A DNA stretch of 64,000 nt, taken from contig OZ024742.1 in the NCBI GenBank assembly GCA_964016885.1, positions 297,290,001 through 297,354,000 on the forward strand, in the 5' to 3' direction. Within the stretch, counting starts at the first letter, position 1, and each line of letters begins with the position of its first letter. The notes under the pieces were generated by a model. The model had not been told where the DNA came from. It saw nothing but the letters and a program-made list of their open reading frames with translations, and ran no database searches. Positions 18,776-63,900 of the stretch are shown here, piece after piece. The DNA is from Eledone cirrhosa (taxonomy: Eukaryota). The translations under genes were made by a program, and so were the position numbers.

Positions 18776-21242
18776 AGGTGGTGTTTAGAACATAACTTAG
18801 CAAAGGTTCTTACATAAAGTTATGATGAAAGGTTTTCAGATAAATATAAATACTTTAAAACAAACAGTATTATATAATAGAGCAAGAGTGGTTTCAGGCA
18901 ATTTGGCATCAAAAGTAGTAAGGTCATTTTCCATAAAACAGGTTAGATTATGAGGTCCATGCAAGGTTTCATGCTCATCATGGGGTCCTTTTTTAGGCAA
19001 TGTTTTATAACAAGATGCCCTCCTTCCTCCTTCACAATGCTATGCCTACTAGTCACGTCTTACAACACACAGAGATACAGTGTAACTATTATAAATCAGA
19101 TATACACAACATATTTTTATCTACTTTTAAAGTGAATAAAATCTTATTTGCTGCTTTAATATAAGCTTCTCTTTTGGTGGATGTAGAATTTGCTAAATAT
19201 CTTACATGATGTAAGCTGTGGAAGCCTTTTCTGCTTTAACTTCCTTTTTTTTTTCTTCTTAACCTGCAGAAACAAACTAAATGGAAATAAAATAGAAATT
19301 TAATCAGCCTAGAAATTTGCATTGAACAAGAAAGCAATTCAGTAGGTTCTCTGTAGCAAGAAGAATAGAAGAAAATAATTATAAAATCAATAATACATGC
19401 AACTACCCACATTACAACTAAAATTGCAAAAACAGAAATTACAGTCACATTTTTATCTGGCTATATACCAATCTACCAAATGTATTTGATGCTGATTTGG
19501 TGATTTACTATACAACACAAGAAGAAAAGATATTTTAAACATCATCTATTTTTGTTTCATTCAGTTATAAAAACTCCATGACAAAATGGACTGAGTTTGT
19601 AGGTTCATATGACACACATTTCATCATATCATTAAATCAATGTATTTTCACACGCAGAGATTTTCTTGATAAGAAATGAGACAAAGGAAAAAGATTTCGC
19701 TACTGATGTCTGCACAATTTGTATTATCAGAAAATTATATAGTTTCTCTTACAGGTGTTCAGTGGTTACCGATAGTACTAATTGAAACTATACTTTTCTA
19801 AGTTCATGTTTAAAGCTTTTCCTTTTTTCCAATGCTTACCATATTTAGTTTGCTAACTTCAAGAGTGGATGCTGCATGACTGCTGCTGCTGAGATGATGA
19901 TGATGATGGGAATGAAAATATTGCTGTGATGCTGGTTTACTAGGTTATATGCCATCTAGTAATAAAGGACTCTATATGCCTGATTCATCAAAATACTGTA
20001 TTTCATGAATTTGATGACAGTAAATCTTTCTAATATTTTAATAGCAAAAGGGTATATTTATCTAAAAATGTCCATCCTAATTTTATACAAGAACCTTTGT
20101 TGAGTTATGCTCCAAAATAAAATGCAGCATAACCAAATTCCTGAGAAAAAATACTTAATCATCACTACCCACAAAATTCCTGATTATTTTCAAAATAATT
20201 TGAAAATCATAAGCACTGTTTTTCGTTAGAAATATGATAATGAAAGGGTTTAAACAACAATAGTTATATAGCAGATGTTGTAATCAGTGGCTTCATCTAA
20301 ATATTTCCAGGAATATTTCAAGTTGGTAGTATTTTGAATAAATTTAAGGTGAATTTGATGTAGGCATTATTGTAGTTTTTAAATATAATCCTTGCTGTGA
20401 AAACATTAAGAAATGTAAGTAGATTTCCCTTTTCACAGAAATTCATATAATTTAAAAATGTAGGTGTTTACATTTAAGTTATCTTAGATTTTCTGATATA
20501 CACTATGTTATGTTACAGTTATCATTGTTTGGTTATCTAATCTTTGGTGATAAATTAGCATTATATGCAACAAAACATTCCCAGCTAGAGGGTTTCTTCA
20601 ATATTGTGGAAAATTGTATGGAAAAGACTGAAATGTTGGTTTGGTTATAGGAAAGCCAATCATTAACAATGAAGCAAACTAAAGTACGATGATTCAGAAG
20701 TTCATGGAGAGAAAGGGAAATAAAAAAAACACAGGTATTTGTTAATTTTACATTTTATAGATTCGTAGTTTTTTGTGATTTTCTTTTAGTAGCAGGGATG
20801 AGAGTAAAAAGGTAAACGAAAAAAGAGAAATTTATATGCTGACAGAATAAAAAGAAATGATATTCATTTAAATAGAAAAAATATCATCAGTGCTATCAGC
20901 AAATTTGCAGCACCAACATAGCACATGGTTTTGTAGTGTTGGGTTGGAATATAAAATAGATAGACACTATAGTTCAAAATACTTCAAATCTACTAAAGAC
21001 ATCAGAAACTACACCATAAATCTGACATACAATGCCTACAGATTCAAAGAATGTAAGAAGCAATGGGATATTTAGTGTCAGAAAACAGTTTAAGATGACA
21101 GATATTATCTATTACTATTCATATATAACAAATATATATAACATATAGTAATAAATTTGAAGACTAAAAACCAAAGAGGTCTCGATAAGATAAATATATA
21201 TCAAATATATAAGAACCGTAGAGCAAATATTTATTAAAATAA

Positions 21243-21318
21243 CAGATTAAAGTTTAAGCAAAGAATAGCTGCTTTCACCCTTAACGGTATCTTCTGAAAC
21301 TAAAAAAAAATCAATCTG
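21243..21318 (-). ncRNA. Degenerate type-I hammerhead ribozyme (core CAGAAGA, U4 changed to A)
   Basis: cagauuga..aguuu-CAGAAGA-uaccguuaagggu-GAAA-gca..ugc-UU^aaacu-uuaaucug. Stem I aguuu/aaacu with an 8-bp extension. Confidence 0.55.
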
Positions 21319-21698
21319 TGAACGCAGAAGTAAATATTTCGAAAAACGTTGCAACCGAAGGAAGCAGGAAGACGATACTTTCGTTCATGGAGGTATGTTT
21401 TCCTGCTAGGTACGGGTATGTTCTTTGTAGAAATATTCATATGTTGTTTCTGCAAGATGAATATAAGTCAATAGAGTCTTCAACCGAGGGAGCCAAATAG
21501 TAATAATAATAAATTTGAAGACTAAAATCCAAAGAGGGCTCGAGAAGGATAAATATATATCAAATATATAAGAACCGTAGAGCAAATATTTATATTCTTC
21601 CTGTCTTCCTTCGGTTGCAAAGTTTTTCAAAATATTTACTTCTGCGTTCACAGATTGATTTTTTTAGTTTCAGAAGATCCCGTTAAGGGTTATGGTAA

Positions 21699-61639: not shown

Positions 61640-62947
61640 TTTACATCACTACAAAAGAGGACATTATCTTTCATGCTAGAAAAACTCTACTCTTTACTAA
61701 TGAAGCTATTTGGGTTTAAAATTCAAGCCCTGAAAACTCTTTTGACGTTGCGATTTGCGATGGGTTCATATGATGTGTGCTGATGTGTGTGACTTAGTAG
61801 GATTATTCCTTCTCCAAACTCTTAAAGAGAAATTTCCTTCCCATAATATCGGTTTATACCGAGACATTGGCAGTTTATCATACCACCAACGGCCATAACC
61901 TTGATAAATTCCGTAAGCATTTAATCAATACTTTTGCTAACCATAACCTTAAAATTACTTTTGATACGAACCTTACTAATGCGAATTTCTTGACATTAAT
62001 CTTGATCTACTTAGTGCCTCTTTTAAACCTTATCATAAACCTAACGAGAATCTAAGATATATACACAAAGAGTCTTGCCATCCCCCTATAATTTATAAAA
62101 ATCTTACTCATAATATTAGCCGTAGGATTTCTACCTTATCTTCGTATCTAGACATTTTTAACGAAGCCGTCCCTTATTATAATAAGGCCCTCAATAACAG
62201 CAGCTTTACAGAACATATTAAATATTTACCAACTCCTCCCCACAAAACTAGTCATAATAACAGGAAAAGGAAAATTATTTAGTTTACATCCCGTTCTCTC
62301 TAACTGTCAAAACTCATGTAGGAAGGAAATTCCTTGACCTCCTAGACAAACATTTCCCCCCTAATCATAGATATTATAAGATTTTTAATAGAAATGTAGT
62401 CAAAATCAGTTACTCTTGCTGTCCATCAATGAAGTCTAAAATCACCAACTCTAATCGTACGAGAGTAAATCCAGGATGCAGTTGCAGGAAGCCGGAAGAA
62501 TACCCATTACAGGGCAAATGTAATACTAAAGCCATTGTGTATGAGGCCAAATTGACACCGTTGGCTAACAACCAGCCAGCCAAGAGTGAACGATATGTTG
62601 GCATGACTCAGGACAGGTTCAAAACCAGGTTTTATGCACATGTCGCTTCTTTTAAACACTCTGATAAAAGAACAACAACGGTTCTCGCAAATAAAGTGTG
62701 GGAATTCAAAGACAAAAACATCCCGTACACTATCGATTGGTCTATTTTGGACCATTCTAGAGAATACCAAAGGGGCACAAAGTATTGCTCTTTGTGCACC
62801 ACAGAAAAATTTAGAATTTTCCAAAATTTGAAAGCCAATTCCACTTGCCTTAACTCCAAGACCGAGATCTTCAGATGTTGTCCTCAGCTGAAATCACATC
62901 TACTTTGTAACTGGATTGACATTCCTAAGATGACTCAACCACCTTGA
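61640..62947 (+). pseudogene. Penelope-like element (Naiad/Chlamys-type) RT C-terminus plus GIY-YIG endonuclease; 5'-truncated and frameshifted
   Basis: ARKTLLF, FDVA..MGSYD, DLVGLFLL, NIGLYRD, PFSLTVKTHVGRKFLDLLDKHFP, KISYSC, CSCRK..PLQGKC, IVYEA...RYVGMT..FKTRF..H, CSLCTTEK, LNSKTE. Confidence 0.9.
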
Positions 62948-63302
62948 ATTCTTCTTTATTCATTACGCCTTACATCCACTACGATGATTATTATTACTCT
63001 CTGAACTCACATTCTGTACCCATATAACTCTCTGAACTCACATTCTGTACCCATATATTCTGTTTCCCCTCATCTCCTCTTATATTTATATATATTTTTT
63101 CCTTTGTTATTTATTTTTCCTATTCGTCCCTACCTTCTACCCTACCCTTTACACACCCACCTTTTTTATATATAGATCTTTATTTTTGTGTGTATGTATG
63201 TATATGTATGTATGTGTTTGTATGTATGTGTATATATGTGTATATATATATATATATATATATATATATATATATATATATATATATATATATATATATA
63301 TA

Positions 63303-63900
63303 TGTAGAAGTTCTATTTAAATTGTTGGGATACAAGCAAATATTTTTATAACTGATATAAAGCACTCAACAAATTATTGGAGTAAAAATACGATATATTA
63401 ACAAATGGAAACTATATTTATAAAACCATATTTATTTCATTATACATATTTCAAGGACACCAAGTTAAATTGTGGTGTGCTTTCATCAGATAAAATATAA
63501 TATAGATCAGTTTTATAAATAAATATTGACATACCCTTCAAGAATGCGACCATTTCTGTTGGAAGCTCCCGGATAGTGGGGTTATTAAATTTATTTAGTC
63601 TATTTGTTATAAAGGACTTCTTACGGTTTATGCTAAACAAACTTATATAATAACAGTCACAACTATATTACAGGTGGATTTATTAGATATAAAATTTATA
63701 AATTTTATAAAATTATAACTTACTATTAAATAATATAAGGTATGTATAATCTTAAATTTCCTTTATTATCTTAATATTTATAACACTTACTTTCCTTCAC
63801 GGTGTTTTGCTATTACATAGAAATGAATTTTCTCCGATTTTTTCTCCGATTTCTCCGAAAAATCTATAAGTTTAGAAAAGTTACTATATCTTAAACATAA
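63303..63900 (-). mobile_element. (TA)n-flanked element with a hammerhead (pLTR-like)
   Basis: HHR at 63434-63496, AATAAA and an ACTC/GAGTGCT motif. Its 3' part resembles about 61340-61475. Confidence 0.55.
63434..63496 (-). ncRNA. Minimal type-I hammerhead ribozyme with a canonical core
   Basis: auuuuau-CUGAUGA-aagcacacc..gguguccuu-GAAA-uaugu-AUA^augaaau. Confidence 0.82.

Follow-up and report, generated by a model that had tools for sequence, protein, structure and literature searches.

Hammerhead-bearing fold-back repeats of Eledone cirrhosa and their relation to retrozymes and Penelope-like elements

Among the hammerhead-bearing repeats described from animals, two kinds come closest to nine units, U1 to U9, that we have analysed in the cephalopod Eledone cirrhosa (assembly GCA_964016885.1, contig OZ024742.1, positions 297290001-297354000; this whole 64-kb stretch is called the window, and positions below are counted from its first letter). 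[quoted passage not shown] In the latter preprint vertebrate retrozymes are regarded as PLE derivatives, and one of nine tested dimers was cleaved. The second kind are the ends of coding PLEs. The Hydra clade of PLEs, which includes Hydra-1_Obim of Octopus bimaculoides, is defined by the motifs RWK, DKT, CxCx5C, CxxC and CxH, and its members have a C-terminal GIY-YIG domain, a hammerhead near the 3' end, tails of 30-40 bp and (TA)n targets (Craig et al. 2021, PMC8557442). PLE insertions in general are described there as partial tandems with an inverted 5'-truncated copy, a tail at one end and a bias towards (TA)n; the same source includes non-autonomous tandem PLE derivatives in Chlamydomonas and several PLE clades in cephalopods, among which the Naiads also favour (TA)n.

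The PLE reaction has been followed in vitro with PAc, a Poseidon-clade PLE of Anolis, in which both strands are cut and extended, two internal starts delimit the tail, a stem-loop lies at the start region and hammerhead cleavage is not needed (Frangieh et al. 2024, PMC11167929). The hammerheads of PLE pseudo-LTRs (pLTRs) can be minimal, with a U3-A8 core, an extra nucleotide before helix II and a palindromic helix III, and occur as opposite-strand pairs 100-700 bp apart, mostly in truncated PLEs (Cervera and de la Pena 2014, PMC4209133). The enzyme that copies animal retrozymes and the origin of the inverted, one-tailed PLE insertions are stated as open questions (PMC7229834, PMC8557442, 10.64898/2026.07.22.740005). 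The nine units are members of these two known kinds: U1, U3, U4 and U8 are non-coding tandem families of the non-LTR retrozyme type, U2, U7 and U9 are 3' ends of 5'-truncated coding PLEs, and U5 and U6 probably also derive from truncated coding copies. The tandem families have the insertion anatomy of PLEs, with two fixed arm ends that are paired almost without exception, and three of them share a tail hairpin with coding Hydra-clade PLEs. We think it likely that one machine, the enzyme of Hydra-clade PLEs, copies both the Hydra-type coding units and the tandem units.

Nine multi-copy families of two known kinds

The window, part of a 3.0-Gb assembly of 1796 contigs, is microsatellite-rich and has a GC content of 34%. 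Families were searched in the same genome and 40 matches were scored per unit; the first-look candidates, which are not copy numbers, amounted to 5093 for U1, 1676 for U2, 1751 for U3, 2136 for U4, 2773 for U5, 3036 for U6, 2123 for U7, 1881 for U8 and 1840 for U9. Each unit is thus a multi-copy family in the genome, and copies of U1, U3, U4 and U8 are spread over many chromosomes. In the locus flanks of other families, insertions of at least 80% identity occur at 2-34 per Mb per family (0 for U8), densities that come from small counts in a non-random locus sample; at such densities nine units in 64 kb are near the expectation of that sample.

The four tandem families resemble the published retrozymes in their non-coding, low-GC (33-36%) tandem monomers with a predicted type I hammerhead, in their dispersal as dimers and multimers, and in monomer length and number per locus. 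U1 (21145..21690, minus strand) belongs to a family of about 371 nt whose tandem copies span 354-375 nt, mostly 369-375; the main arm (21593-21145) holds 1.24 monomers with a period of 358 nt, and the inverted arm (21601-21690) is cut inside its own hammerhead. U3 (41318..41969, plus strand) represents a 318-nt family with a U3-A8 hammerhead; its inverted arm (41610-41318) stops at one of two fixed sites, named B, and its sense arm (41609-41969) at the other, named A. U4 (45468..46540, plus strand) represents a 518-nt family and is built alike, the inverted arm (46047-45468) stopping at site B and the sense arm (46047-46540) at site A. U8 (60517..61067, plus strand; about 555 nt, range 548-555) has a U3-A8 core, and here the inverted arm (60734-60517) stops at site A and the sense arm (60733-61067) at site B. 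Copies of U4 and of U8 are 97-99% identical within their families.

Arms contain at most 4.1 (U3), 2.8 (U4), 2.6 (U8) and 2.8 (U1) pure monomers, and beyond the 5' ends of U3, U4 and U8 arms comes either the inverted arm, a TA run or unrelated flank, and nothing else. No in-register link to an open reading frame (ORF) was found for the four families in 108 loci of limited flank length, and none that was fixed among 66 loci with the C-terminus of a PLE ORF; where units lie 3' of such an ORF in the same orientation, the distances are scattered (307-2633 nt) and the ORFs belong to different families. Two U1 loci followed 6.5-7 kb further upstream gave no match to the PLE ORF. Long non-coding upstream sequence is common to 12 of the top 20 U1 loci, 6 of which also share the downstream flank; transduction of upstream cargo by U1 was considered and rejected, the shared downstream flank making U1 a passenger in a larger repeat there. 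That repeat (loci L142-L157, L227 and L228) is dispersed, non-coding and longer than 8 kb, with nested units of 200, 885 and 1100 bp, AC-rich minisatellites and, inserted in it, either 1.56 or 2.56 monomers of U1; the repeat yielded no ORF. In the window, a broken fragment resembling an LTR retroelement (21670-23392, minus strand; several short frames, one domain match to reverse transcriptase, RT) adjoins and cuts the inverted arm of U1.

The remaining five units show no tandem period. U2 (41055..41290, minus strand) is the 3' end of a coding PLE of Neptune/Nematis type: in one of three fetched loci its hammerhead is preceded, about 330 nt upstream, by a GIY-YIG C-terminus, which is also present in a related subfamily, in which a CX4CxxC linker was read. 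U7 (58618..59650, plus strand), a single arm ending at site B, is the 3' untranslated region (UTR) and end of a coding Hydra-clade PLE; a Hydra-type ORF remnant stands 1.0-1.7 kb upstream in the same orientation in two of nine loci. U9 (63303..64000, minus strand) is a fold-back of 3'-end sequence from a second coding PLE of the Hydra clade, with an ORF remnant of this type 1.6 kb upstream, again in the same orientation, in two of seven loci (8 kb upstream was examined for both). The U9 arm 63604-63310 ends at site A, and the opposite arm starts near 63605 and reaches site B about 680 nt beyond the window; in this family all 12 listed second arms end at or near site B. U5 (46563..46915, minus strand) is the 5'-truncated 3' end of a longer element, of which other copies have in common, upstream, from several hundred to about 900 nt of UTR-like sequence; no ORF was seen there. 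U6 (56211..56406) is a miniature fold-back of two arms with A and B ends, both truncated inside domain II of the hammerhead and therefore without the 5' core; longer parents with a TTGANAA core were found in three distinct loci. A further TA-bounded unit related to U6, with the 3' hammerhead half and the tail and no core, lies at 46930-47108 (minus strand).

A preliminary description of the window, made from its letters, had read all nine motifs as parts of short non-coding, non-autonomous retrozyme-like elements copied by a PLE enzyme. This holds for four units, which do show the PLE-type insertion pattern, and fails for at least three of the nine: the motifs at 59536 (U7) and 63434 (U9) follow Hydra-clade ORF remnants, and that at 41157 (U2) follows a GIY-YIG C-terminus. 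The inverted arms and the terminal redundancies with periods of 358, 318 and 518 nt are present as described, with the amendments that 358 nt is the period of the window copy only, that the unit at 60744 (U8) is periodic as well, and that the unit at 63434 likewise forms a fold-back, with a second arm that runs out of the window. The implied multi-copy status was borne out by the 1676-5093 candidates per unit. A candidate PLE partner inside the window, at 61650-62947, had been overlooked.

Paired arm ends in TA runs

The arms of the tandem families end at the fixed sites A and B, which in U4 lie 61 (B) and 179 nt (A) past the predicted cut, in U8 155 (B) and 236 nt (A), and in U3 about 130-140 (B) and 166 nt (A); the arm-end sites of U1 are 29 and 117 nt past it. 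When the head-to-head junctions of the 108 tandem-family loci were classified (with the four window copies counted, and with the duplicates L132 and L147 and fetches that overlapped at one locus removed), 59 joined A to B, one joined A to A and none joined B to B, while at 14 unclassified junctions one end fitted neither site. Of the 60 junctions that could be classified, 59 therefore pair one A with one B end. Where loci had been selected by a single arm, the counts were 29 A+B, one A+A, no B+B and seven unclassified junctions. Nearly all classified A or B ends (172/174) touch (TA)4 or more, compared with 15.5% of random 40-nt windows. The length of the TA run does not differ consistently between A and B ends, so nothing points to TA having been synthesised reiteratively at one of the two ends.

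The 5' ends of the arms are scattered and most junctions overlap by 0-12 nt; the published PLE layout (a partial tandem, an adjacent inverted 5'-truncated copy and a tail at one end) fits the fold-back units. Since B arms can exceed A arms (15 of 59 loci) and the 5' ends mostly differ, snap-back synthesis was rejected. Discordance at polymorphic sites is much lower between the arms of one locus than between loci, 0.095 against 0.324 in U3, 0.173 against 0.339 in U4 and 0.096 against 0.366 in U8, and both arms and all monomers of a locus carry common subfamily variants; the two cDNAs were therefore made on a single RNA or on sister RNAs with a common source. The idea of unrelated RNA molecules, raised by a 4-nt indel that separates the window U4 arms, is rejected by these shared haplotypes.

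Two observations concern individual loci. At L114:1556 a U3 arm with a site B end stands head to head, without TA, with a 5'-truncated Hydra-type ORF; this would be a two-template insertion provided that the PLE end, which lies beyond view, were of type A. Related U4 copies at L079, L080 and L093 have a second arm without monomer positions 439-518, which is the hammerhead from helix I to the predicted cut, and the deletion could be the trace of a single event of cleavage and rejoining.

Hammerhead cores, tail hairpin and the Hydra-clade family

Hammerhead-like sequence is present at all nine coordinates given in the preliminary description. The cores are CAGAAGA in U1 (21296, minus strand), TTGAGGA in U2 (41195, minus), TTGATAA in U3 (41760, plus, and 41494, minus), CTGACGA in U4 (46292, plus, and 45598, minus), CTGAAGA in U5 (46765, minus) and U7 (59541, plus), TTGATAA in U8 (60752, plus) and CTGATGA in U9 (63489, minus); U6 at 56370 has the 3' half only (GAAA, helix III and GTC). 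The cores of U5 and U7 are canonical. The U5 motif at 46679 was also tried as a core with a 3-nt deletion, which proved wrong, the core at 46765 being followed by a long, branched domain II. The U4 hammerhead has a long helix II domain and a predicted cut at 46361/46362, and that of U8 has extensions of about 75 nt of helices II and III and a predicted cut at 60912/60913.

The suggested check against Rfam gave no hammerhead family at E<=1 and only microRNA matches driven by microsatellites, so the support for the hammerheads rests on a relaxed descriptor and on compensatory changes. The descriptor matched 185 times in 830 kb of fetched loci plus window, a count inflated by the choice of loci for these very families, and 12 times in shuffled sequence. 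In the 318-nt family one helix II pair is A-T in 24 of 37 loci, T-A in 10 and mismatched in 3, probably through a single event; in a relative of the 518-nt family the change in helix II is GGAATG/CATTCC versus GCAATG/CATTGC, again compensatory, and a relative of the 555-nt family has a different yet fully paired helix I with a canonical core. The core is kept in 87 of 91 passes of U3, 57 of 62 of U4 and 26 of 32 of U8. In the window copy of U3 the first pair of helix I is mismatched, which is not so in 81 of 92 family passes. Folded as circular monomers, U3, U4 and U8 are more stable than shuffles (z -7.9, -3.2 and -3.2). By sequence, a type I hammerhead is predicted in each monomer of U3, U4 and U8 and is doubtful in U1.

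Compared with the minimal pLTR hammerheads (PMC4209133), whose description covers U2, U6, U7 and U9, those of U3, U4, U5 and U8 are larger and better paired, and the U3-A8 cores or domain insertions of 50-75 nt set the motifs apart from published retrozymes. Many further unrelated hammerhead families in the locus flanks end in TA runs, several of them with the tail hairpin described next and some without it, and the genome clearly has far more than nine such families.

Between sites B and A lies a small hairpin of the form RCTC, stem-loop, 2-nt bulge, GAGY, which is common to the coding Hydra PLEs and to U1, U4 and U8. In eight of ten families a 4-bp basal stem (GCTC/GAGC, ACTC/GAGT or GTTC/GAAC) starts 2-11 nt after site B and carries an upper stem-loop of unrelated sequence, usually with a 2-nt 3' bulge that is often followed by RCTY; pairing and position are kept while the loops are unrelated between families. 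The strict pattern occurs 230 times in all fetched sequence, 163 times within 130 nt upstream of a TA run, and falls into 46 sequence clusters, 19 of them with at least two members; reversed and complemented sequence gave two occurrences each. In the window the hairpin is found in U4 at 46427..46458 (plus strand; GTTC/GAAC basal stem, with a second copy at 45981 on the minus strand) and on the minus strand in U5 (46633), in U6 (about 56260-56287), in the inverted arm of U8 (60570-60594) and in the site A arm of U9 (63383). It can also be read by eye at the 3' end of the coral element Hydra-2_Amil and twice at the 5' end of the sea-cucumber element Hydra-1_Ajap (supplement of PMC8557442), and is not visible at the shown ends of Hydra-1_Amil, Hydra-1_Obim and Hydra-1_Ajap that stop shortly after the hammerhead.

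The PLE of the window (ORF 61650..62947, plus strand) is 5'-truncated and frameshifted and comprises RT and GIY-YIG domains. Its family has 67,513 candidates, and two open frames of 715 aa (L065 and L066) among 150 scored matches show RWK and DKT in the RT, a CxCx5C linker, CxxC and CxH, no CCHH and, at the C-terminus, a GIY-YIG domain; by these published clade motifs (PMC8557442) the family is assigned to the Hydra clade. By eye the window protein is closely like Hydra-1_Obim. Pfam gave no match in the 228-aa GIY-YIG frame, which was identified by its motifs, and an ESM Atlas look-up of the 715-aa protein returned unnamed clusters only. The family is a candidate enzyme source for the tandem families. 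Its ends adjoin TA runs, and an inverted arm of its 3' UTR (59836..61600, minus strand; microsatellite-rich) is interrupted by U8, which has inserted into it.

The hammerhead of this family (L040, L065, L066, and a tenth, degenerate window motif at 59917, minus strand) is reduced to core, 2 nt and GAAA, without helix II and with a poor helix I, unlike the complete motifs of the U7 and U9 Hydra families, and this very abundant family may spread without an active ribozyme. Its 3' UTR in L036, L046, L047 and L053 is a mosaic in which a U6-type arm and a U9-like tail segment are fixed between microsatellite runs, which suggests nested insertions into TA runs of the UTR that were passed on to new copies. 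Apart from the PLEs, an uninterrupted 1040-aa frame at 42333-45455 (minus strand) with endonuclease, RT and PHD-finger domains is apparently an intact long interspersed element (LINE) of RTE type; a diverged, broken relative at 57370-58617 (plus strand) is cut off by U7. A 31-bp tandem repeat of about five copies occupies 3547-3704.

Proposed copying mechanism and its alternatives

We propose that coding Hydra-clade PLEs make an RT/GIY-YIG protein that would cut both strands within pre-existing (TA)n and prime cDNA from each cut DNA end. The protein would bind the small hairpin in the RNA tail and start at two fixed internal sites, one per DNA end, site B lying just 5' of the hairpin and site A 20-90 nt 3' of it. 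Each cDNA would stop at random and both would be joined head to head at an overlap of 0-12 nt, to give TA-[B arm]<->[A arm + tail]-TA, or a single arm if the second start failed. Truncated coding copies made in this way would account for U7 and U9 and probably U5 and U6, with U2 coming from another PLE clade. U1, U3, U4 and U8, which keep the hammerhead (and in U1, U4 and U8 the hairpin), would borrow the same kind of enzyme, and would be copied from either a tandem transcript or a circle closed by re-ligation, the copying passing the hammerhead site as many as four times. Extension of two strands from two internal starts has a precedent in vitro in a Poseidon-clade PLE (PMC11167929), in which the start sites showed no difference between the strands, whereas the genomic copies here almost always pair one A with one B; the stem-loop of PAc also differs in sequence from the hairpin.

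Several points weigh against this proposal. When the nine window motifs are folded one by one, only two are more stable than shuffled sequence (z -8.8 and -3.0), and the other seven range from -1.4 to +0.6. The U1 core has nucleotide U4 changed to A, a non-canonical state found in 39 of 41 family passes, which makes U1 cleavage doubtful. The U3, U8 and U1 queries were the A+B fold-backs of the window and favour A+B among the top matches, and TA at some ends is partly templated by the element. The hairpin is only partial in U3 and the U2 family lacks a Hydra-type one; moreover, its pattern was defined after the tails had been viewed, in loci chosen for these families. A TA target alone does not name the partner, since Naiads share the preference. 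Finally, as most loci were fetched with only about 1.5 kb of flank and as the 40 best of 1700-5100 candidates, rare ORF-linked masters of U1, U3, U4 and U8 may have escaped.

If such masters existed, all nine units could be pLTRs or 3' ends of coding PLEs, the tandem arrays being partial-tandem pLTRs. This is the case for U2, U7 and U9, retrozymes and pLTRs are related in frogs (10.64898/2026.07.22.740005), and the sampling was shallow; we nevertheless regard it as unlikely for the whole set, given arms of up to 4.1, 2.8 and 2.6 pure monomers in U3, U4 and U8, 5' ends that run into nothing but inverted arm, TA run or unrelated flank, inconsistent distances behind different ORF families, and the two U1 loci followed far upstream in vain. 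It is also quite unlikely that a Naiad, Neptune or RTE/L2 LINE enzyme moves the tandem families and that the hairpin is an inherited trace of a Hydra pLTR origin. An apparently intact RTE-type ORF does lie in the window at 42333-45455, and U3 lacks the full hairpin; LINE-type priming, however, starts at the RNA's 3' end and gives no two fixed ends. Cephalopod Naiads list (TA)n, but are described as remnants that have long been inactive (PMC8557442), at odds with the 97-99% identity of U4 and U8 copies, and the hairpin has kept its pairing and position although the loops are unrelated. An origin of the palindromes as chimeras of the assembly, or from satellite arrays inverted at the DNA level, is largely refuted and highly improbable. 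Fold-back reads are a known long-read artefact and TA runs are fragile; yet the arms differ by 3-4%, have fixed ends at two distinct sites and meet at scattered points, and the U4 joint 45841/46047 recurs in two contigs of the public run X1 (possibly the same sample). The doubt on this point raised in the preliminary description was thereby largely settled in favour of real palindromes.

A separate matter, compatible with copying by a Hydra-clade enzyme and fixing only the template, is whether the tandem families run the full retrozyme cycle of cleavage, monomer circles and rolling reverse transcription; we give it slightly less than an even chance. In its favour, arms cross the cut site repeatedly, in 18 loci each of the two arms is longer than one monomer, a single haplotype runs through all the monomers of any one locus, and the circular monomers of U3, U4 and U8 fold better than shuffles, as noted above. 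Circles of this sort are documented in mussel, coral and axolotl (PMC7229834). An uncleaved tandem transcript with internal starts would give the same picture, and is the dominant substrate in vitro (PMC11167929); read-through of the cut site fits circle and linear template alike. Of 59 U4 arms, 9 have a 5' end no more than 10 nt from the cut, against 2.3 expected, but three of the nine represent one shared deletion and three lie at AT microhomology, and there is no enrichment in U3 (0/70) or U8 (1/39). Among U1 copies that have their flanks in common, some hold 1.56 monomers and others 2.56, a full monomer more, and therefore arrays also change in length after insertion.

How much of this is new can be narrowed down. 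The features of fold-back, tail and (TA)n are already on record for PLEs (PMC8557442), and the concern that the units are simply pLTRs of known PLEs applies to at least U2, U7 and U9; the families are likely to carry an annotation already, either unnamed or as Penelope repeats. In the main text of PMC7229834 the words "inverted", "microsatellite" and "target site" do not occur, and the main text of the 2026 preprint does not analyse insertion ends, whereas most copies sampled here are (TA)n fold-backs with two fixed ends. Compared with the Hydra PLEs in PMC8557442, there are at least three divergent coding families here, 3' UTRs of 1-1.7 kb or longer and tails from 26-36 nt (U3) up to 78-118 nt, and the portions of that source compared here mention neither non-autonomous Hydra dependants nor the tail hairpin. 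A literature search, with Repbase, Dfam and most subscription papers outside its scope, found no paper on cephalopod or octopus retrozymes or on a conserved Hydra tail hairpin. We found no account in print of retrozyme-type repeats with the whole PLE insertion signature, of two fixed arm ends paired A with B in 59 of 60 junctions, or of a hairpin between B and A common to Hydra PLEs and three tandem families.

The value of the finding lies in the structural tie of retrozyme-type repeats to PLE chemistry, in the near-strict A+B pairing and in a conserved candidate cis-signal; the young, abundant families offer fixed starts, a pairing rule and a candidate signal of 25-50 nt for the existing in vitro PLE assay. 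The units also appear to be a sizeable and easily mis-annotated share of a cephalopod-type genome. More tentatively, and with somewhat less than even odds in our judgement, the hairpin might be a clade-wide RNA handle of Hydra-type PLE proteins, from corals to cephalopods, that places an asymmetric RT dimer, so that any hammerhead repeat bearing it would become a retrozyme of that enzyme. One RT subunit would then start upstream and the other downstream of the hairpin, one per target strand. If true, a set of animal retrozymes would thereby gain both an identified enzyme and an identified cis-signal, and the inverted-plus-tail structure of PLEs would be explained.

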